Source: a virus | Lineage: Duplodnaviria; Heunggongvirae; Uroviricota; Caudoviricetes | Length of the DNA stretch: 38,544 nucleotides | Reading direction: 5' to 3' (one strand) | Virus record (IMG/VR): IMGVR_UViG_3300017917_001353 | Coordinates: 1 to 38,544 of that record | Part shown: one piece after another, positions 1 through 11,015 of the stretch | Layout: each line of letters starts with the position of its first letter | Position numbering within the stretch: the first letter of the stretch is position 1 | Position numbers and translations under genes: made by a program | The notes under the pieces: generated by a model | Seen by the model: only the letters and a program-made list of their open reading frames with translations | The model's database searches: none | Told to the model about the DNA's origin: nothing

Positions 1-89
1 CCAATGTAGTTCTTGCCATTGACCACAAGCTCATAGATGATGTGGTTGCGGTCTGCTCGCTTCTTGCGGGGAGTGTTTTTTGCTTCCAT
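1..89 (-). CDS. GIY-YIG-like endonuclease, N-terminal fragment (runs off the window edge)
   Basis: Hand translation from ATG at 89: MEAKNTPRKKRADRNHIIYELVVNGKNYIG. IIY-x9-YIG fits a GIY-YIG motif. The ATG is 6 nt after a TATAAT box. Not in the ORF track. Confidence 0.65.
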   Translation of the reverse strand, partial: MEAKNTPRKKRADRNHIIYELVVNGKNYI

Positions 90-1018: not shown

Positions 1019-1058
1019 AAAAAAAAGTACTAGGCCAAATACCTCCTAGTACCTTTTT
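1019..1058 (-). terminator. intrinsic terminator of the tRNA transcript (possibly bidirectional)
   Basis: 8-bp stem GTACTAGG/CCTAGTAC (1027-1034 with 1045-1052), 10-nt loop, T8 on the minus strand and T5 on the plus strand. Confidence 0.75.
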
Positions 1059-1088
1059 AGTACTGATGTTCTGCAAGTCACAGCCACC

Positions 1089-1262
1089 AGTCCCGATCCC
1101 CATGTTCCTACTACTTTCGTAGTGAGCCTTAACCACTTGCCGCCTATGGTCGGGGACTCGAATCACACTGCGCTCAGTCTAAGACATTTTGCTCAATACA
1201 GTTTACTAGGATCTCTCAGCCGGCAAGCACCTGACCCGTTCACTGTACATATACTGTGATTC
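1089..1262 (-). ncRNA. candidate structured, pseudoknotted ncRNA in the tRNA 3' trailer
   Basis: No ORF. Hand-found helices: 1255-1262 with 1160-1167 (8 bp); 1242-1248 with 1196-1202; 1233-1237 with 1209-1213; 1146-1158 with 1089-1103; GAAA-tetraloop hairpin 1110-1123; crossing helix 1221-1228 with 1135-1142. No family assigned. Confidence 0.5.
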
Positions 1263-1286
1263 TACGGTTTCTCTATATAGTGTAAG

Positions 1287-1364
<78 letters not shown>

Positions 1365-1385: not shown

Positions 1386-1414
1386 ATTATACAGTCTAAC
1401 CCTAGGTTGGACAA
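1386..1414 (-). promoter_or_regulatory. sigma70-type promoter of the tRNA/ncRNA transcript
   Basis: TTGTCC (1414-1409), 17 bp, TATAAT (1391-1386), about 20 nt upstream of the tRNA 5' end. Confidence 0.75.
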
Positions 1415-1635
1415 TGGATTTACCGTGAAAAATGGTGGTTTTTCTGGCCATTTTTGGCCTAGAATGAGGTCAGAATAGGCCGATTTTCTAGGATTTTGGG
1501 GCACAATTGACGCAATTTGGCCACCGTTTTCTAGGGTCTACACTGTGATCTAGGCTGTGGTGGAGAGAGGTTATAGTCAAATACTCTCCCACAATCTCTC
1601 AGGTTCTCCACCGTAGTCCACCACCCCCACGGGGC

Positions 1636-1790
1636 CCCTATAGCGGGGTTTTCTACACACACCCTACAGCGGGGTATTTGGCTGTATATAGTGTATAGTG
1701 TGCTTAGGCTGTCTTCCTGTGTGCGTTCGCTACGCTCACTTATGGCGCTGCGTAAAGAATCTCTGATCTGCTACAGCGGGGTATTTGGCT
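1636..1790. repeat. dispersed 20-bp direct repeat in non-coding DNA
   Basis: ctacagcggggtatttggct at 1664-1683 and 1771-1790, with a degenerate copy ccctatagcggggtttt at about 1636-1652. Confidence 0.8.
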
Positions 1791-1898
1791 ATATGTAGTG
1801 TTGATCTATAGTCTCTATACTGCTATAGTTGTTCTATACAGTCTATGTGTACACAGTGATCTAGTCGCTCTTTATAGTAGCATGTGCAGTTTCACTAG

Positions 1899-1925
1899 TG
1901 TATATGTATATGTATATGTATATGT
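1899..1925. repeat. (TATATG)4 microsatellite
   Basis: tg-tatatg-tatatg-tatatg-tatatg-t, directly after the stop codon of the minus-strand gene ending at 1925. Confidence 0.9.
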
Positions 1926-2638
1926 TAATCCCAGTTTAAGATCTGTGGAGGAACTCGTGTATGTTTGGGTTGAAACACTCTGGGCACGTAGTCAGCATTC
2001 TCTATGTAGGGTGTAAGTAGCTCTTTGTTAAAGTCGAAAGCCATAACCAGTCTGGGTTTCGTGCCTAGATGTCGTACTCCGTGATATACGTTACTGTCAT
2101 CAAAGGCCATTAAGTCGCCGTCACTCCAAGTATAACGATCGTTTTCTAGATCAAACTCTGCGGCTGGATCTGTGCTTAGTCCTAGATGACAGCGTAGGTT
2201 GTGCTGATTAGTTTCGGGCCCGTAGTGGTGATTGATCCTACTGCCGGGTTGATTTAGGTAAAATACTAGGCTACCCAGGTGTTCTTCATTGGTTTTTGCC
2301 CAATGACCTACAGTGGGCATTAGATCGTAGAGTTTATGCAGGAACAGTGGCTGTGTCTGATCCTTCCATATATAGATACGCTGTTTGTCCGCAGGGCTAG
2401 CAGATTCTGGGCGTACCATTAGGGGTACTGCGTGTATGCGACCCTCGTAGATCAACCGCTGTTCGTGTAGCGTAGTAACCTGGGGTTTGGTACTGGTTTC
2501 TGTAGGGTTGGGTTCTAGACAGTTAGCAATGCCGTGTATGTTACGGCGTAGTGCAGCATATTCATCACGGATCTTTGTCCAATTCTCGGTGAGGTAGTCA
2601 GTGTAGGGGTTACTTTTTAACTTTAGTACGAGGCTCAT
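1925..2638 (-). CDS. aspartyl/asparaginyl beta-hydroxylase-family 2OG-Fe(II) dioxygenase
   Basis: Motif series PGSRINHHYG, LRCHLGL, YTWSDGDLMAFDDSNVYHGVRH, RLVMAFD is typical of the Asp_Arg_Hydrox family. Confidence 0.8.
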   Translation of the reverse strand: MSLVLKLKSNPYTDYLTENWTKIRDEYAALRRNIHGIANCLEPNPTETSTKPQVTTLHEQRLIYEGRIHAVPLMVRPESASPADKQRIYIWKDQTQPLFLHKLYDLMPTVGHWAKTNEEHLGSLVFYLNQPGSRINHHYGPETNQHNLRCHLGLSTDPAAEFDLENDRYTWSDGDLMAFDDSNVYHGVRHLGTKPRLVMAFDFNKELLTPYIENADYVPRVFQPKHTRVPPQILNWD

Positions 2639-2858
2639 CTCTAGGGTTGTCCTTGGAATTCTGCTCAGCCAAATGCTCTAGATGCTGCCATACTTCATAT
2701 TGGTTCTGGGCACTGTAGGCCAAGAGTTCGCGGACCAATCCGTAGGCATAGACCCAACTGGCTGTGCCCTTGTAGTTATCCATGCCCGGTTGTACCGCAC
2801 GATCAATTAGACTGCGTAACCTGGCCTGCCTAGTTTCTGCCTTTTTATCACCGTTCAT
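2610..2858 (-). CDS. hypothetical protein (82 aa)
   Basis: ORF starts 4 nt after an exact TATAAATA box and overlaps the start of the dioxygenase gene. Confidence 0.65.
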   Translation of the reverse strand: MNGDKKAETRQARLRSLIDRAVQPGMDNYKGTASWVYAYGLVRELLAYSAQNQYEVWQHLEHLAEQNSKDNPRDEPRTKVKK

Positions 2859-2862
2859 GAAA

Positions 2863-2870
2863 TATTTATA
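2863..2870 (-). promoter_or_regulatory. T4-type late promoter consensus TATAAATA
   Basis: Exact octamer, followed by TTTC-ATG. Related boxes precede other genes (see findings). Confidence 0.6.
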
Positions 2871-2925
2871 GATCTGGACAGTGTCTGTAAATACTGGACC
2901 AACGTAAAGAATCTATTTTATATAC

Positions 2926-3738
2926 ATGCAGAACAGAGCAGCACCCACAATAGTCACAGGCACACGACCCGGGCGTGTGAACACAGTATTCCGTATGAGC
3001 CCCTTGGCTACTTGGTTCAAGGTTCTGGCTCGACAGCCCGGTATAGAACACTATGCGATCGGTAATACCCGCAAGAGCCTGGTGGGTACAGGCACTGTAC
3101 AGCGTTTCCCTAAGGTACAGATACAGGGTCGTTGGCTGATACCCCTGCTCACACACTGTCATGTATACCCCCTGGGTCGTGGGGGTCAGTTTGCGGGCTT
3201 TACCAGCACGGGCTATTGGTTTGATGCTGGCTCGGGGGCCCTACTGGGCAACTGCCGCTACAGTGACAATCGCAGCCTCACAGCCATGCATGAGGGCATG
3301 GGCCCCTGGGACTGGGTTACCAATGATCGCGTAGAACTGGGCCTACCCAAGGACCCCGTCACAGTGGACTTCGGCCTCAGTGAAATAGCCTACGTGAGCG
3401 CTTGGACACAGTGTGGTACCAGCATGAGTGCGGCCTCTGGGGGTATTGGGCAGGGCAACGCCTACGTCATGGGCCCTGCTTACAGCCTACCCGAACTAGA
3501 GATCAAGCGCCGTGTCAGTATTGAAACGGGCAACAGACCCGGGCAGGTCTGCTATACTTGGACCACCCAGACACAGCAGGGCCAGGGTCCTATTCAAGAA
3601 GAAAACATTAGGTTTTGGATCAACACGGGTCAACACACTATAGAGGGGGTTGAGTGTTCAGTGGATGTGGTCCACGTGGACGAAGCACGGGTTCACAGTT
3701 GGATACGTGAGCCCAGCACGTGGCGTAGGCTGACTTAA
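2926..3738 (+). CDS. hypothetical protein (270 aa)
   Basis: Long open frame, convergent with the next gene with a 4-nt overlap. No motif recognised. Confidence 0.7.
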   Translation: MQNRAAPTIVTGTRPGRVNTVFRMSPLATWFKVLARQPGIEHYAIGNTRKSLVGTGTVQRFPKVQIQGRWLIPLLTHCHVYPLGRGGQFAGFTSTGYWFDAGSGALLGNCRYSDNRSLTAMHEGMGPWDWVTNDRVELGLPKDPVTVDFGLSEIAYVSAWTQCGTSMSAASGGIGQGNAYVMGPAYSLPELEIKRRVSIETGNRPGQVCYTWTTQTQQGQGPIQEENIRFWINTGQHTIEGVECSVDVVHVDEARVHSWIREPSTWRRLT

Positions 3739-4454
3739 ATCCAGGTCCAGTCCTGTCCGTGTACGGGGGTCAGGCCAATATGACTGCGCTGTATAAAGTA
3801 ACGGTCCGAGCCCAGGCCCAGTTGATCCACTAAATTGGCGTAGACGCTGTCCACACAGATGATGCTCTGGGCACCCTCAATAACACTGATCCAATCCCAA
3901 ATGGTGTAGCCCTTGATAGGCCGTATTTCCACAGTCTGCCACTCTGGGGGTACAATGCTGGGGTCAAATGACGCCCGAACATCACTGCCCTCTAGGTGTG
4001 CTACCACATAGTTAGGGTTGGTAACGACCTGTGCCATAAGGGCTCGTTCACGTTGTGGGTTACGTGTGATGCACCGGGCTAGATTCCATTTTTCCAAGAA
4101 GGGTACACCTGCCCTGATGTATTTGTACTGATCAAAACTGGTATATTGGAAATACTTTTCTTCTGAAAACTTATGATTGGTCAGATGCTGGTACAAGGGC
4201 AACAGTTCATCTACCTTTAGGTTACGTAGACGCTCAACGGGTACGTCATAGAAATAACGTCCCGGAGGGTCGTAGGGCACGGGCACCCAATTAACCCAGG
4301 GTGCGCCTTCCTGCATATCCCAAAGGAATCGTTCATCAATGGGCCAATAGATGTCCCAGTCTCGATCAGCGTACCAGCGGGCAATGGGGAGAGCGATCAC
4401 TAGATCGCCCAGGCCCCTACTTTGAATAATACCTAGTTTTTGTCGTTTGCTCAT
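3735..4454 (-). CDS. GT9 (heptosyltransferase)-like GT-B glycosyltransferase
   Basis: N-terminal SRGLGDLVIALP and C-terminal WISVIEGAQSIICVDSVYANLVDQLG, matching the GT9 pattern L..li..a..fig.DSg..hlA.alg. Confidence 0.7.
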   Translation of the reverse strand: MSKRQKLGIIQSRGLGDLVIALPIARWYADRDWDIYWPIDERFLWDMQEGAPWVNWVPVPYDPPGRYFYDVPVERLRNLKVDELLPLYQHLTNHKFSEEKYFQYTSFDQYKYIRAGVPFLEKWNLARCITRNPQRERALMAQVVTNPNYVVAHLEGSDVRASFDPSIVPPEWQTVEIRPIKGYTIWDWISVIEGAQSIICVDSVYANLVDQLGLGSDRYFIQRSHIGLTPVHGQDWTWI

Positions 4455-4597
4455 GCAGTCAAATAAGTGATAACATTGCCCCGCCCGTATTGGGCTTCGG
4501 CTAGAGGAATAACGTCAGTAGCATAGTCTGCGTGAATTTGGACCCAGGCAGTACGGCCACGATCGCCACCAACAGCAATAAGAACTCGGTACAGCAT
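4451..4597 (-). CDS. small conserved-looking phage protein (48 aa, below the ORF-track cutoff)
   Basis: MLYRVLIAVGGDRGRTAWVQIHADYATDVIPLAEAQYGRGNVITYLTA. It has a GAAAGGGG SD and a consensus promoter, and its TGA overlaps the next ATG (ATGA). Confidence 0.75.
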   Translation of the reverse strand: MLYRVLIAVGGDRGRTAWVQIHADYATDVIPLAEAQYGRGNVITYLTA

Positions 4598-4627
4598 GTT
4601 AGACCCCTTTCAATTAAGTATGTATAT

Positions 4628-4656
4628 ATTATACAGCGGTTTTACCTATAGGTCAA
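4628..4656 (-). promoter_or_regulatory. near-consensus sigma70 promoter
   Basis: TTGACC (4656-4651), 17 bp, TATAAT (4633-4628). Confidence 0.8.
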
Positions 4657-4686
4657 CCTATTTTTATGTTGTAAAATTACAACAGT

Positions 4687-5466
4687 TTAGAAGTACTCAA
4701 TGTGGCTTCTAGCAGGGAAATAGCACTCATTACGTTCTAGAGGCATGTCTCTGCGTGTTTCACAGCGTATATCTCCTACACCCAGGCCTACTGCCAGGGC
4801 GTAACATTGGCTTTGGTTGCCAATAAAGCATTTGGCTCCGGCAATAACTTCTGCTAGTTCTAGCATGTCCGAAGTCTTGTGATGCGGTACTGTCCAGCCC
4901 GTTAACTGTCTAAAATAGGCGTACTCATCTTCTAGGCCTACAAACACAGCACTGTCTTCCCAACGTCGCTTTTCTTTCCAAAACGCCCAGTGCTTGGGTA
5001 GATCAGGCGGTAACCAGCGTGTGGTTCTATTGATAACGATCTGACGACCTAGGATCTGTCTGGGTTTAGGCACAGACAGCCAAGGGCGTGTCTTAATGAT
5101 CTTTGCAGTTTCTGGACTGGTATACAATCCAAAGATGTCTGCGTAGAGATCTATGTAATTGGTAGGGTGATGCACAAAGGGAGGCCTAAAGCGATCAAGG
5201 TTATGACTGATCGCTGTTTGACGCTCATCTAAGACATCAAACTTGGTAATGTATTCTTGTGCTTCCATAAAGGGCCGCATGTACTCAAAGTCTTGTAGAG
5301 TCATGCGTCCTTTGTGAAACTCACTAGGAGGACTGTTATAATAGTGCAGTCCTACCCAGTCTAACTGGTTAAGGTGTAGATAAAACTCGCCGCCGCCTGT
5401 ATACTTGGCCACGACCATACCATAGATTAAATCACCTAGGGCACCGGAATGTTTGTATGTGTTCAT
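4687..5466 (-). CDS. GT9-like GT-B glycosyltransferase
   Basis: HSGALGDLIYG at the N-terminus and MLELAEVIAGAKCFIGNQSQCYALAVGLG near the C-terminus. Confidence 0.7.
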   Translation of the reverse strand: MNTYKHSGALGDLIYGMVVAKYTGGGEFYLHLNQLDWVGLHYYNSPPSEFHKGRMTLQDFEYMRPFMEAQEYITKFDVLDERQTAISHNLDRFRPPFVHHPTNYIDLYADIFGLYTSPETAKIIKTRPWLSVPKPRQILGRQIVINRTTRWLPPDLPKHWAFWKEKRRWEDSAVFVGLEDEYAYFRQLTGWTVPHHKTSDMLELAEVIAGAKCFIGNQSQCYALAVGLGVGDIRCETRRDMPLERNECYFPARSHIEYF

Positions 5467-5558: not shown

Positions 5559-8500
5559 ATGAGTGAAAAAAAGTATTATACGATAGGTGCAACCACCCCT
5601 GAAGCGTGGGAACGTATTCATGCAGTGTTGACTCAGGATGGTACCCTAGACGATAATATACCACCTAGATCAGTTGAATGCGTGGACCTAAAGGAACACA
5701 GTCCCACAAGAGCAGTTTATCTATTAGATGATAACGAAGCCGCACAATTAAGTCAACACCCAGATGTAAAGTTTATTGAGTTAGATAGATCCAAATATCC
5801 AGAACTATTTCCTTCTCCGCCTAACGAAGATTTCCATTACGGCAATAGATACACCGCACCAACTAAGAATCACAGAGATATTATAGCAGGCGGCTATCCA
5901 AATCCTGTAACCACAGCCGACATCAACAGATCGGGCTTTCAGGTACTACGCGGCTCTACTCGTAAGAACCCGTGGGCTACTGCAACTTCTGTTGTTTCGA
6001 GCAGAATTCCAAACGTAACAGGCACAGGTAAAGATGTAGACGTTATCGTTGGGGACGAGGGCTGCTGGTTCGGGCACGTAGAATTTGCCAACAACACAGG
6101 TACAGGCCCTGCTGACTACATTGGCGGTAACCCTTTACCAGGTAACGGAACCTGTGACCTACTGGACCTAGTTCTAGACGGTCCTTATTATATTGACCCT
6201 GCGTGGTTCAATGCAAACCCTGGTACACGATTAATGACACGTTGGGATGGAACGATTGTCCCTACAGAAACAGCAGCCAGAGCTTGGTGGAGTAATGCAG
6301 CACAGCGTTCTGCACAGTTTGCCAGTGCAGGTACTGTGGCAATTCCTAGTTACTACACAAGAGCAGACTGTAACGGATCTAACACAAGTAAGCCTACCTA
6401 TCCAGACGGCGTACACGGAACACCTTGTGCCGGACAGACCTACGGAAGAACACACGGCTGGGCCTACAATGCAAACAAATGGTTTGTAAATGCCTACGGT
6501 AATTATGGACTTTGGCCAGTTGACAATTACTTTGATGTGATGAAAATATTCCATCAAACAAAGCCCATTAATCCTACATACGGTAACAAGAACCCTACAA
6601 TATCTAGCAACAGTTGGGGATATCGTGCCACTCAGGGCAGCACAGGTTATTATTATTTTAGACAAGGTACATCGGGCACAGGCGGAGTTGCTTATAGCTC
6701 TAAGCCTGCGTTCATGCAGTATCTAGGCAGTACAGGTGACGGCGGCCGATTCAAAGGCGAAATGATTGACAACGGATTGACCACAGCAGGCGATGAAATG
6801 ATTGCTGCCGGTGTTATCTTTGTTGCAGCCGCAGGAAACAGTAACCAACAACAGGTAACTTCAGATCATCCTAACTACAATAACTATTGGAGTTCTAGTC
6901 CATCTACACCACTGACAAGTGCAACACACAACGAGTTCGGCGAGTCCTGCTACAACACAACTAATCGAAGAGGTTTCCCTCAGCACATCGGAAAATACTA
7001 TTCTGGAACAGCAACAATATACCCTGCGATTAATATCGGTGCGTTAGACGACGACTATGCTCCAGGTAGTAAAGAGCGCAAGGTAAATTACAGTGACATG
7101 GGTAATGACATTGATGTCTTTACACCAGGAGATGGAACAATTTCTGCAAACTACGGCTCTGGTCTACTGATCCCTCGTTATGATCAGCGCACTGAGCCAG
7201 GTAGTATAACATCTTATGATGCAAGATTTAACGGAACTAGTTCAGCATGTCCAACCGCTACAGGTTTAATTGCAACTATCTTAGAAAACAATAGAACATG
7301 GACATGGCAGAATGTAAGAAATTGGTTACACGATCTAACTCCTCACACTTCTTCTACATTCTATATCGGAGTAGAACCAAGCACGGCAACAGATCCTTCT
7401 TGGTCAGACCTAAACAGCCTTCAAGGCGCTGCTCCTCGTGTATTATATAATGCTAGTCTGGTTGCTACAACTGCAATTAATTTTGTATCCTTAAATGCAT
7501 ACAGTCCAGCGTCTACTCAAATTCCTGTAACTGCATCGGGTGGCACAGGAGTTTACTCTTACTCAATTAGTCCTGCACTACCTGCAGGGCTGTCATACAG
7601 TTCGACTGGTACACTATCTGGTACGCCAACGGTTCTTTCGTCAACAGCAACTTACACAGTTACCGTAGATGATCAAGACGACGTAGCATCTGCTACATTT
7701 AGTTTAAACGTTTATGCAACACCCCTAGTATCGCAGTTAACAACATCAACTGTAAAGATACAGCCGTTAACAACTACCACAGCATTTACGCCTGTAACAG
7801 TTACCGGAGGTAACGGCGCAAAGACCTTTGGTATATCACCTGCATTGCCAGGCACACTAACAATCAACGCAGCCACTGGTCAAATCAATCCAGGTGTTGT
7901 AACAACATTGTTTACAACAACCTTTACTGTAACAGTATCGGATCAAGTAGGACAGAGCACTTCGAAACAGTTTACACTGATTTCTGAAGCACCTCCCCTA
8001 TCTTTATCAGTTGACTACCCTACAGTAAGAATTAACCCATTTGTTACAATATTGCCTATCGCTCCAGTCTCTACCGTTGGAGGATTTGGTACAAAGACTT
8101 ACAGCATCAGTCCGTCTTTGCCCGGTACACTGACTTTCAATACAGCGACCGGCGAGATTGGAGCAGGTGTTGTAACAACATTGTTTACCACGACATTCAC
8201 GATTTCTGTAAGCGACCAAGTAGGTCAAAGTTCTTCTACGCAATTTGATTTAGTATCGGAGATTGTACCGTTGTCCGTTAATACACAGGTTGCCTCTAGA
8301 ACCGTATTAGCATTACAACCAATATCTCCCTATGTGCCTGTTGCAGCCGGCGGCGGTAGTGGTGTCCTTACATATTCTGTAACTCCTGCACTACCAGCAG
8401 GAATTGTATTCAATACAGCAACTGGTCAGGTATCTGGTACTCCTAGTGTACTAGTTAACAACTCTACACATCTAGTTACAGTTAGCGATCAGTTAGGACA

Positions 8501-11015
8501 AAGTCTTAGTGCAAACTTTTCTATCACGGTTCAACCTGTTCCTATTGTAATCAATACTGGGACCAAACGAGTTGTATATCTTAGAAATCAAACTATTACT
8601 CCATTCGTTCCGTTATCTGCATCTGGCGGCAGCGGAGTGCTAACGTATTCGATTAATCCTCCTCTGCCAGAAGGACTAACCCTTAACCCTAGCACAGGCG
8701 CATTGTCAGGAAACACTGGACTGTATATGAAGTCTACATTGTTTACAATGACAGTGGCAGATCAATTAGGACAATCGAAAAACTATCAGTTCTCAATTAA
8801 GATAGCATCAGAACTGAACTTAATTGAATCCGAAGATCAAAATCTTGTACATGATGCTTTATTCAGCATTATGGGTACGACTGCTACAGGCTACGGTGCA
8901 GTATTAATTGGCGACCCAGTTGACCCCGGCCAACTAGTTGAAGCAGATGAATGGAATGAGTTGTTGATGGACGTTGAAAGATGTCTAATACATCAGAATG
9001 GTACTTCAACAAATAACATCATTGCTGCGAGTACAGGTAGCATTGTAGACTTTGCTACACCTGCTAGGATGTACACCACAATTCAGTTCTTACAAAAGAA
9101 CATTGATCAAGTACACCCAAGTCAATTAGATTCGTTTACCTACAACACAAATCAATTGAGTCCTGTTTATTGGACATCTACTAACTATTCTAGTACCGCT
9201 ACTATGGTCGCCGGTAATGGTTACATGACAACCATTAACTGGACATGGTTCTATGAAAATCAACTTCGTTATTTCTTTAACCTAGGTGGCACACTACAAC
9301 CTCAAATTAAGATTGCAGAACCAACTGGGGCAAATGCTAAGAAAGGTTGGAAAGACCTAATTGCCGCTGCCAACCAAGTTGTATTTGGAAAAGAAGAATT
9401 CCTTCAAGCACTGTCTAACCCTAACAAGACATTTATCTACACTGTGGTAGGCAGTGGTGCAGCAGGCGACGCAAAAGGAAAGGTTATAGAAACCAGAAAG
9501 ACAAAGATCATTAGTGAGAAGTACGGCAAACGAATTATCTATAAGAATAAGGATGCTAAAAACTACTCTGCTAATGCACTAACTGTTACATTCAGAGTAA
9601 TGGGTAGTACCATCGTAGGTTCTATGAACTTCGTTGCAGGTCTAGCACTTAAGAAGGCAGGTCCTAAGAAAAAGACTGGTAAAGAAATTATCAAGTACAA
9701 TAAGAAAAATAACAAGAAACATATTTTCTTTGGAAAGAAAGTTATTGATATCTTTACCAAGAAGATCATTGGTAAGTACATTGGTGTTAGAGTTAGACTA
9801 GAAACAGACTTCAAGACAACATACTCTACCGGTGCGAATGGAGGCATCGCTGCACAGATTCCACAGACACAATTGATTGGTAATTATGTTAGTGCGGCGC
9901 CTAGCCCTGTGCCAGAGTTCGTGATGGGCGTAGGAGATACAGAATCGCAGATGATCGTGTTGAGAAACAACAGCACATTTACCTGTGAAGTTTCTGACAT
10001 TGTTCTTAGCGGCTATACGACAGGAACGGTTACCCCTACAACATTAACAATACCTGCGTTCAGCAGCGGCACATTTAGTTTATCCTACACAGGATCACAT
10101 GCTGGACATCATAAAGGTCTAGTTGACGTCTTATGTAACGTAAACAGACTGACACTGTTTACAGAAGTTAATGTTGGTAGCACCAATCCTCCGAACCTAG
10201 TACTGACCACATCTACCTACGATGTTATCAGTCAAGACTTCGTTGTTGACCATGCGGGTGGGTATTTCAAGAGCTTCGACTTGAACTTTGTTCCTGGCCC
10301 AGGATTTACCCATACTCCAAAACTTCCAGATACCATAGATTCATTTAATGTTACGTTTAATCCTAAAAATCTAGTGAATGGTGTTTATACTGCGGGTGTA
10401 GAAGTTACAGTTACTCCGTTAGACAGCAGTCAAGAACCGACAGTGTGGACAGTTCCTGTGGCCATTACACTGGCTGTTGAAAATAGACACATTGCAGATT
10501 GGACAAGTTGCAAACTAGGCAATAACACGAAACTAGGTTTGAGTTATGATATCATCGGAGGCAGAACATATCTAACAGCAGGTATTGGTCTGGGTTCTCC
10601 GTCTATTGCAGAGCTAGGTGTTGCTGAGTCTAATTTTGATTCTTGGAGCGAAGTCTATAGAATTCCTCTCGAAGCAACTACACGAAGGATTTATTCTAAA
10701 GACTATAGAATAAAGGCTGCTGAAGATTTTGTCTACGGCGAATACTTTGGTGTTGGAAGTGCAAGAGGTAGTATACTAACCTGCAACTATGATGGTAAAG
10801 GAAACCTCGAAGTGCTAATGAACACAGTCTATACAGTTCCTGGACAAAATACCAACGAAGTGTTAGACCTAAGTACAGCATTTAGATACTATGACAGCAG
10901 ACGCAGTGCTCAGTTACAGCAGTTGAGCGGACTAACACAAGGTGGCCAGTGCTATGTGTTTAATGGATTTGAAAGATCCGGCGATCTGATGCTAAACCTA
11001 GTGCTACCAAATTAA
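5559..11015 (+). CDS. 1818-aa subtilisin-like (S8) protease with five putative-Ig repeats and a virion-protein-like C-terminal half
   Basis: Intact catalytic set: D166 (VIVGDEG), H286 (GVHGTPCAG), oxyanion Asn (AAAGNS), S561 (FNGTSSACP). About 90-aa prodomain-like N-terminus. Five repeats of GG.G..TYSI.P.LP.GL..N..TG.ISG...FTVTV.DQ. No signal peptide. Confidence 0.85.
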   Translation: MSEKKYYTIGATTPEAWERIHAVLTQDGTLDDNIPPRSVECVDLKEHSPTRAVYLLDDNEAAQLSQHPDVKFIELDRSKYPELFPSPPNEDFHYGNRYTAPTKNHRDIIAGGYPNPVTTADINRSGFQVLRGSTRKNPWATATSVVSSRIPNVTGTGKDVDVIVGDEGCWFGHVEFANNTGTGPADYIGGNPLPGNGTCDLLDLVLDGPYYIDPAWFNANPGTRLMTRWDGTIVPTETAARAWWSNAAQRSAQFASAGTVAIPSYYTRADCNGSNTSKPTYPDGVHGTPCAGQTYGRTHGWAYNANKWFVNAYGNYGLWPVDNYFDVMKIFHQTKPINPTYGNKNPTISSNSWGYRATQGSTGYYYFRQGTSGTGGVAYSSKPAFMQYLGSTGDGGRFKGEMIDNGLTTAGDEMIAAGVIFVAAAGNSNQQQVTSDHPNYNNYWSSSPSTPLTSATHNEFGESCYNTTNRRGFPQHIGKYYSGTATIYPAINIGALDDDYAPGSKERKVNYSDMGNDIDVFTPGDGTISANYGSGLLIPRYDQRTEPGSITSYDARFNGTSSACPTATGLIATILENNRTWTWQNVRNWLHDLTPHTSSTFYIGVEPSTATDPSWSDLNSLQGAAPRVLYNASLVATTAINFVSLNAYSPASTQIPVTASGGTGVYSYSISPALPAGLSYSSTGTLSGTPTVLSSTATYTVTVDDQDDVASATFSLNVYATPLVSQLTTSTVKIQPLTTTTAFTPVTVTGGNGAKTFGISPALPGTLTINAATGQINPGVVTTLFTTTFTVTVSDQVGQSTSKQFTLISEAPPLSLSVDYPTVRINPFVTILPIAPVSTVGGFGTKTYSISPSLPGTLTFNTATGEIGAGVVTTLFTTTFTISVSDQVGQSSSTQFDLVSEIVPLSVNTQVASRTVLALQPISPYVPVAAGGGSGVLTYSVTPALPAGIVFNTATGQVSGTPSVLVNNSTHLVTVSDQLGQSLSANFSITVQPVPIVINTGTKRVVYLRNQTITPFVPLSASGGSGVLTYSINPPLPEGLTLNPSTGALSGNTGLYMKSTLFTMTVADQLGQSKNYQFSIKIASELNLIESEDQNLVHDALFSIMGTTATGYGAVLIGDPVDPGQLVEADEWNELLMDVERCLIHQNGTSTNNIIAASTGSIVDFATPARMYTTIQFLQKNIDQVHPSQLDSFTYNTNQLSPVYWTSTNYSSTATMVAGNGYMTTINWTWFYENQLRYFFNLGGTLQPQIKIAEPTGANAKKGWKDLIAAANQVVFGKEEFLQALSNPNKTFIYTVVGSGAAGDAKGKVIETRKTKIISEKYGKRIIYKNKDAKNYSANALTVTFRVMGSTIVGSMNFVAGLALKKAGPKKKTGKEIIKYNKKNNKKHIFFGKKVIDIFTKKIIGKYIGVRVRLETDFKTTYSTGANGGIAAQIPQTQLIGNYVSAAPSPVPEFVMGVGDTESQMIVLRNNSTFTCEVSDIVLSGYTTGTVTPTTLTIPAFSSGTFSLSYTGSHAGHHKGLVDVLCNVNRLTLFTEVNVGSTNPPNLVLTTSTYDVISQDFVVDHAGGYFKSFDLNFVPGPGFTHTPKLPDTIDSFNVTFNPKNLVNGVYTAGVEVTVTPLDSSQEPTVWTVPVAITLAVENRHIADWTSCKLGNNTKLGLSYDIIGGRTYLTAGIGLGSPSIAELGVAESNFDSWSEVYRIPLEATTRRIYSKDYRIKAAEDFVYGEYFGVGSARGSILTCNYDGKGNLEVLMNTVYTVPGQNTNEVLDLSTAFRYYDSRRSAQLQQLSGLTQGGQCYVFNGFERSGDLMLNLVLPN

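Follow-up and report, generated by a model that had tools for sequence, protein, structure and literature searches.

Organization of the locus

The stretch of DNA analysed here (38,544 nucleotides, the window) is the start of the virus record IMGVR_UViG_3300017917_001353, and the element in question is a non-coding RNA (ncRNA) gene on its minus strand, situated between a tRNA gene with a CAU anticodon (1364-1287) and a run of small open reading frames (ORFs). The ncRNA locus heads this run of small genes, which have strong promoters. An original prediction, made from the single sequence, had placed a functional pseudoknotted RNA at 1059-1286, co-transcribed behind the tRNA and bounded by a promoter and a terminator. 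From comparison with homologs we conclude that this trailer is a real structured ncRNA gene with helices P1-P8 and two pseudoknots (PK1 and PK2). The conserved unit spans 1272-1057, whereas 1286-1273 is a variable spacer. The features of the locus are given in Table 1.

Table 1. Features of the ncRNA locus in window coordinates (J, junction strand).
Feature	Position	Strand	Details
Promoter for tRNA and ncRNA	1386..1414	-	sigma-70 type; 10/12 consensus match
tRNA	1287..1364	-	CAU anticodon, encoded CCA; ARAGORN and Rfam
Spacer, tRNA to ncRNA	1273..1286	-	AU-rich, variable; 3-63 nt from tRNA end to AAACC in relatives
Conserved ncRNA core	1057..1272	-	216 nt; from just before invariant AAACC to just after invariant ACU
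P1 closing helix	1093..1267	-	1267-1265/1095-1093, after invariant AAA (1270-1268); 33/33 paired
Domain 1	1160..1262	-	P2 (1262-1255/1167-1160) opens a three-way junction with P3 arm and P4
P3 arm	1196..1248	-	P3a, internal loop, P3b, purine bulge, P3c, PK1 loop; 96-98% paired, compensatory changes
P3a; P3b	1248-1242/1202-1196; 1237-1233/1213-1209	-	
P3 arm loop-E-like internal loop; purine bulge	1241-1238/1208-1204; 1217-1214	-	
PK1	1136..1227	-	7-bp loop-loop pseudoknot, 1227-1221/1142-1136; 33/33 paired
P4 hairpin	1172..1192	-	3-nt loop (1182-1180) with invariant UA; 100% paired, 5/5 pairs covary
Domain 2	1097..1156	-	P5, P6, variable P7 hairpin, near-invariant J7/5; three-way junction
P5; P6	1156-1152/1101-1097; 1150-1147/1135-1132	-	P6 is ACCN/NGGU; both 100% paired; P5 5/5 covary
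P7 hairpin; J7/5	1126-1108; 1107-1103	-	P7 insert variable, 10-20 nt; J7/5 near-invariant
PK2	1075..1130	-	3-bp pseudoknot, 1130-1128/1077-1075 (3' hairpin loop); 33/33 paired
P8 3' hairpin	1062..1091	-	carries PK2 loop; then invariant ACU (1061-1059); 97-98.5% paired
Intrinsic terminator	1019..1058	-	starts directly after invariant ACU; strong hairpin and U-rich tail, 27/27 members examined
112-aa GIY-YIG gene, 5' part	3..89	-	stand-alone nuclease-fold gene, runs off contig; 88% identity, residues 6-29

Homologs and covariation

Homologs were reached through relatives of the upstream hydroxylase ORF, which led to syntenic contigs; five of these had tRNA-CAU and a clearly related trailer. The search was widened by invariant-base patterns, a syntenic marker protein and two covariance models (CMs). 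The ncRNA was found on about 49 contigs, representing 33 distinct full-length sequences of 206-223 nt with CM scores of 120-203 bits, and pairwise identity among the first 27 sequences was 44-99.5% (mean 59%). Invariant bases occupy 29 positions across the 33 sequences, many of them unpaired, and no reading frame is conserved over the set. Members from outside the original sample, chosen via a neighbouring protein, match both pseudoknots. Two early loose patterns gave chance-level matches only, and relatives of the downstream 109-aa ORF were without the ncRNA.

The evidence rests on homologs because single-sequence features stay within chance. The window sequence folds no more stably than its shuffles (minimum free energy z = -0.22; family mean about -0.9), a measure that is uninformative here. 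In contrast, in a MAFFT alignment of 18 sequences that was not fitted to the model, the 44 proposed pairs were 99.7% paired and 28 of them exhibited double changes, a result that none of the 500 shuffles or the slid controls reached. In the alignment of 33 sequences fitted to the model, 51 pairs had 98.9% of cells paired, 42 of them with compensatory changes; this alignment is biased towards nested helices, but the pseudoknots were no part of the model. The L358 row, which had wrong coordinates, was left out of alignment A3.

A tree-aware test was also performed, in which a G-test with average product correction was compared with 150 null alignments obtained by re-placing substitutions on the tree (the procedure is not R-scape itself). 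Eighteen pairs exceeded every null, all of them within the proposed helices and three of them in PK1. Conservation and covariation thus lie far beyond chance, and the phylogeny-aware result gives strong support to the proposal that the RNA is functional and pseudoknotted and belongs to neither GOLLD nor theta.

Fold of the RNA

In the model a 3-bp P1 closes a central junction with P2 and P5, after which come P8, the invariant ACU and the terminator. The third pair of P1 is GC in 18 members, CG in 14 and UA in one, and P1 is significant in the tree-aware test. P2 occurs in every member with 4-9 bp, on average 6.5 compared with 4.3 when partners are shuffled. On the P3 arm the 5' side is constant at 21-24 nt, and a loose pattern for the loop-E-like element matched 18 of the 33 sequences. 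The invariant bases of the P4 triloop are U92 and A93.

PK1 was seen in 12 sequence variants with double changes in all seven pairs. The crossing pseudoknot that had been proposed is therefore real, albeit with 7 bp instead of 8-9, since U1135 belongs to helix P6. PK2 exists as AAG/CUU (22 members), AGG/CCU (10) and CGG/CCG (one), and its middle pair reaches only E ~0.1 in the tree-aware test; we regard it as well supported, but less strongly than PK1. The strands of P8 have lengths of either 13/12 or 14/13 nt only, and four of its pairs exceed every null. A natural variant, L264:12813-13028 (+), has an altered J7/5 and a compensated CGG/CCG PK2, and keeps the fold. A GAG/CUC candidate for a further pseudoknot was rejected, as L185 keeps P4 by compensatory change instead.

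All sequence elements named in the original prediction were located where it had placed them. Of its domain 1 helices, P2 is present in every member and P3a and P3b are paired across the homologs with compensatory changes, and hairpin 1123-1110 and the kissing strands 1228-1221 and 1142-1135 are likewise in place. Domain 2, on the other hand, had to be redrawn. The first and third pairs of the suggested CCAU/AUGG helix form in only 7 and 6 of 33 members, the real helix being P6, and the outer extension of the domain is not conserved, because its 3' GGG pairs with the 5' CCG as P1. Three elements had been overlooked, namely PK2, the UA triloop hairpin P4 and the conserved 3' hairpin P8.

The fixed lengths of P3 and P8 may represent the reach needed to contact the P6 loop and J6/7 inside one molecule. 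This geometry bears on the idea that PK1, PK2 or both are intermolecular, so that the RNA would self-assemble into dimers or rings as ROOL and GOLLD do, with the variable kissing sequence as a self-recognition code. Covariation is blind to the difference between intra- and intermolecular pairing, PK1 occurs in many variants, and intermolecular contacts were established for some of the covarying kissing loops of GOLLD and ROOL (Kretsch et al. 2025, PMC12286853). However, the arm lengths seem to suit an intramolecular fold, there is no conserved palindromic loop, and the ncRNA is at most a third the size of the cage-forming RNAs; we consider self-assembly quite unlikely.

Comparison with known RNAs

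Rfam scans of the window and 23 homolog loci returned tRNAs only, and in the window no other family was matched even at E<=10. We also found no description of the family in the literature searched, a coverage that leaves out most subscription journals. The 10,006 viral candidates listed by Fremin et al. 2023 (PMC10690425), which are unvalidated, may include the ncRNA. On this comparative evidence we propose that it is a new family of structured phage ncRNA, albeit one of a known general kind, i.e. the ornate and tRNA-linked RNAs such as GOLLD and ROOL.

With GOLLD it shares a phage-encoded, ornate and function-orphan character, kissing loops and an upstream CAU-tRNA (here in 27 of 33 members); GOLLD env-38 is also found downstream of a Met-tRNA (PMC12286853). 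Unlike GOLLD, which exceeds 800 nt and has 5' and 3' domains, the ncRNA measures 206-223 nt and is bounded by the promoter or tRNA and the terminator. The GOLLD model (RF02032) gave no match at E<=10 in the window region or G000, and none in the 23 homolog loci; the Rfam model spans only 416 positions, and the variable 5' domains of GOLLD were compared only via env-38, in which the invariant motifs of the ncRNA were not seen in order by eye. The ncRNA covariance model gave no match in the phiCbK GOLLD region.

The bacterial raiA RNA (ModT; PMC12968392), which binds general RNA-binding proteins, resembles the ncRNA in size (about 204-253 nt) and in having as many as eight stems, a pair of pseudoknots and length-conserved helices. 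Its PK1 and PK2 share one linker, however, and its P1 is long, whereas here PK1 is a loop-loop contact, PK2 is formed via the 3' hairpin loop and P1 has 3 bp. The raiA linker motif was found in none of the 33 sequences, and Rfam gave no raiA match.

As for Y RNAs (YrlA/YrlB), the T-arm motif occurred in 4/33 sequences with no Rfam Yrl match, and no TROVE gene was found in five ncRNA-bearing records, each only 25-44% complete. Conserved regions I and V of RNase P were found in 0/33 and 1/33, respectively, with no Rfam match, and the stretch resembling RNase P instead makes the covarying P4 triloop hairpin. Five other likenesses were discarded: to the J3/2 T-loop of the thiamine pyrophosphate riboswitch (the bulge is not conserved in divergent members), to the cobalamin B12 box (one subtype only), to domain I of group IIC introns, to a T-box-like pairing between UGGU and the CCA end of the tRNA (UGGU already has its partner within P6, and one subtype has AGGU instead) and to a codon-like reading of the UA triloop by tRNA-CAU (the first base varies). 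Stable non-tRNA RNAs co-transcribed with phage tRNAs include rnaC and rnaD of T4; compared with the RNAs of the T4 tRNA cluster the present ncRNA is longer, has another fold and has no sequence match in GenBank phages.

Theta ribozymes, which belong to the hepatitis delta virus (HDV)-like family, are likewise pseudoknotted RNAs behind phage tRNA genes, often tRNA-Met or tRNA-Leu (PMC10879173). The ncRNA is four times longer and lies 3-63 nt from the tRNA end without being fixed there, whereas theta sites are found within 5 nt of that end (Kienbeck et al. 2024, PMC10879173). A rough descriptor of the HDV nested double pseudoknot and catalytic C matched 2/33 near-identical sequences and not the window, and there was no HDV-family match in Rfam. 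Rough core motifs of hammerhead, hairpin, twister, group I and group II gave 0-2/33 matches each, also with no Rfam match, and no twister or other ribozyme was found near the members.

A ribozyme of a new class would nevertheless be conceivable, with an active site formed by PK2, J6/7 and J7/5 and with self-cleavage or joining at the 5' boundary or activity on another RNA. Many of the 29 invariant positions are unpaired and predicted to be clustered, the sharp 5' AAACC and 3' ACU boundaries lie close together, two pseudoknots and fixed helix lengths are found, and phage tRNA regions are known to hold ribozymes (PMC10879173). On the other hand, neither a known core motif nor an Rfam match was obtained, the ncRNA is bigger than known self-cleavers, no conserved flank up- or downstream would need a precise cut, and the natural variant L264 alters both J7/5 and PK2 yet keeps the fold. 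Taken together, we find such a ribozyme unlikely, but the foremost rival of the role proposed below.

BLAST of three ncRNA subtypes against GenBank phages (50,697 records) gave no meaningful match. The cultured phages nearest by an NrdA fragment (GAP32, XbC2, RaK2, X1 and BF) gave no CM match in a run without a positive control; the same CM does match in another search. A single scan of cellular genomes yielded two pattern matches only, both in Lachnospiraceae and neither of them a full-length homolog; with one such scan, cellular copies may still exist.

Transcription unit and relation to the tRNA

Both boundaries of the predicted transcript are kept in relatives, most of which have a near-consensus sigma-70 promoter with 17-nt spacing at the same place before the tRNA. 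On the single sequence, by contrast, the promoter is at chance level (6 such sites seen, 5.8 expected). The terminator of the window has a 14-pair stem and a U run, and its 10-nt loop made the scan overlook it. Predicted co-transcription of tRNA and ncRNA fits the conserved promoter and terminator, and the spacer is likely the region cut by host endonucleases. The tRNA was called Met, but we take it to be probably Ile2 from C4-G69, C5-G68 and G27-U43 according to tRNA identity rules; it would then presumably read AUA after lysidine modification.

The ncRNA is not tied to this tRNA. The distance from the tRNA end to AAACC is 16 nt in the window and varies in relatives, and a tRNA-Leu intervenes in two members. 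Six members are without a tRNA (L270, L276, L281 and L375-L377), most of them with a promoter-like site about 60 nt upstream. Conversely, at least six syntenic relatives keep tRNA-CAU without the ncRNA, which is also missing from four near-complete relatives. Given the variable spacing, the tRNA-less members and the relatives having the tRNA alone, the ncRNA is an independent, optional gene and not an appendage for tRNA processing. The role of processing element, which had been among the functions first suggested, thereby loses its basis: a theta-like cis element maturing the tRNA 3' end would be in line with the 27 of 33 members placed behind tRNA-CAU, but not with these three observations, with the lack of a conserved HDV fold or with the fixed position of theta sites (<=5 nt from the tRNA end; PMC10879173), and we give it next to no weight.

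A riboswitch or attenuator, in which an aptamer fold would control read-through of the terminator into early genes, appears highly improbable as well. The terminator does abut the conserved domain in every member, and aptamers also have invariant junction bases. However, the next gene downstream has its own promoter-like site (window 928-900), the intervening genes vary and are in some cases on the opposite strand (L165, L173, L381), and the terminator stem varies freely, hardly overlapping the conserved part of the ncRNA.

The downstream GIY-YIG gene and allele exchange

At every ncRNA locus with enough downstream sequence, a gene for a 112-aa protein lies about 120-980 nt away on the same strand (full copy: L165:5695-6033). 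The protein has no Pfam or PHROG match. Its AlphaFold model (predicted local distance difference test score 85.8) matches the I-TevI and UvrC catalytic domains with weak E-values (probability 0.99 at best); its matches to viral GIY-YIG proteins reach E<0.001. The protein consists of the catalytic domain alone, has a basic N-terminus and shows invariant catalytic-type Y, R, H, E and N. On the strength of this model it is a predicted nuclease, and the gene appears to be a hallmark early-type gene of the phage group. The family is highly conserved and comprises about 2,500 clusters; since two of the three lineages sampled through it bear the ncRNA, the latter may be common in nature.

The constant neighbourhood and the nature of the protein raise the question of whether the ncRNA is its RNA partner, as an inhibitor, scaffold or guide. 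Against this, the protein is present without the ncRNA in L265, L266, L284, L286, L287 and the near-complete G008, and identities of ncRNA and protein are uncorrelated (Spearman 0.12, p 0.22, n 17), so the linkage may be plain synteny. Further, the L165 and L173 proteins are identical although the ncRNA alleles differ, and the ncRNA has no variable guide-like segment of fixed length. A partnership is in our judgement very unlikely.

The L165/L173 pair is informative in its own right. Promoter and tRNA are 100% identical and the 300 nt downstream 96% identical, whereas the ncRNAs are only 59-65% identical; given the near-identical flanks, the ncRNA allele was in this single case exchanged as a unit.

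Source phage and genomic setting

With the 102.5-kb record (of which the window is the first 38.5 kb) about 29% complete, the genome would be roughly 350 kb, i.e. that of an uncultured jumbo phage. An NrdA fragment shares about 50% identity with the NrdA of GAP32/RaK2-like jumbo phages and of Xanthomonas phages. A two-piece permuted transfer-messenger RNA (tmRNA) of betaproteobacterial type with the tag ANDNVYALAA is encoded at G000 76142-76536 (+) and L162:18142-18509, and from this tmRNA type the host probably belongs to the Betaproteobacteria. A tRNA with a CUA anticodon, amber suppressor-like and scoring 34 bits in Rfam, was also noted (G000 89231-89303 (+); L164:1231-1303), and the long ORFs of the genome bearing it read in the standard code.

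Upstream of the promoter, a gene-free stretch (window 1557-1800, minus strand) contains a 12-nt repeat, AATACCCCGCT.., in 1-4 copies (window 1785, 1678) and a conserved pyrimidine-rich element. The stretch is kept clade-wide, even where the ncRNA is absent, and is possibly an origin, a packaging site or a protein-binding array. Contigs with the ncRNA mostly end about 1-6 kb downstream of it (G006, G009, G012, G018, G024, G043-G047 and G000), which suggests a genome terminus or an assembly-breaking hypervariable region there. Elsewhere in the window (1925-5466 and 5559-11015) an Asp/Asn beta-hydroxylase-like gene (PF05118), unannotated ORFs and a gene for an 1818-aa protein are clustered; homologs of the latter bear Peptidase_S8 and He_PIG repeats.

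Proposed role

We tentatively propose, at somewhat less than even confidence, that the ncRNA acts in trans early in infection, as a stable RNA binding or decoying a putative host protein. The RNA would be made early by the host sigma-70 polymerase, usually joined to tRNA-CAU, and be freed by host nucleases within the AU-rich spacer, while the terminator would set its 3' end. The P3 arm would then fold back to kiss the P6 loop and P8 would fold back to clamp J6/7, giving side-by-side helical stacks in one compact, decay-resistant monomer of about 215 nt plus the terminator stem. The invariant unpaired bases (5' AAA, the junction G, J7/5, the UA triloop and 3' ACU) would form the surface that binds and occupies a host protein whose activity concerns RNA or translation; a defence nuclease or a factor linked to translation would be the likeliest target. 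Serving as decoy or scaffold, the ncRNA would in this way help the neighbouring phage tRNA to keep translation running.

An interaction with the host is suggested because the gene adjoins a phage tRNA where an early-type region begins, is optional and is allele-swapped. Its accessory pattern, present in some relatives and absent at the same site in others, resembles that typical of counter-defence genes. The decoy or scaffold reading draws on the T-even phages, in which counter-defence is the function of a tRNA locus that includes a GIY-YIG gene (PMC13096335, PMC2330249); the T4 SegB tRNA locus likewise has a free-standing GIY-YIG gene nearby (PMC2330249, PMC13096335), although the present GIY-YIG protein differs from mobile homing endonucleases in being a bare 112-aa domain of high conservation.

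Several points weigh against a protein-binding role. A catalytic or ligand pocket would account for the 29 invariant bases equally well, the patchy absence of the ncRNA may represent phylogenetic loss or divergence beyond the model, and the T-even phages provide no more than an analogy. The mosaic of L165 and L173 is a single case in one sample series, and assembly could explain part of it. A broader conjecture, which we think rather unlikely, is that the ncRNA is either a new ribozyme class or an RNA directing the adjacent GIY-YIG protein, carried as a cassette that an abundant jumbo-phage clade would swap and use early against host RNA or DNA.

Structured RNAs longer than 200 nt seldom combine two pseudoknots with many invariant junction bases, and the known examples are ribozymes, riboswitches, parts of the core machinery or, like GOLLD, ROOL, OLE and raiA, puzzles of long standing. 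To these the present RNA adds a separate family whose model is supported by covariation and whose ends are exact; it also has natural variants, of which L264 is useful as a construct for functional study, and a size fit for synthesis and assay. It provides a compact test case for the question of why ornate RNAs are retained in the tRNA operons of large phages.
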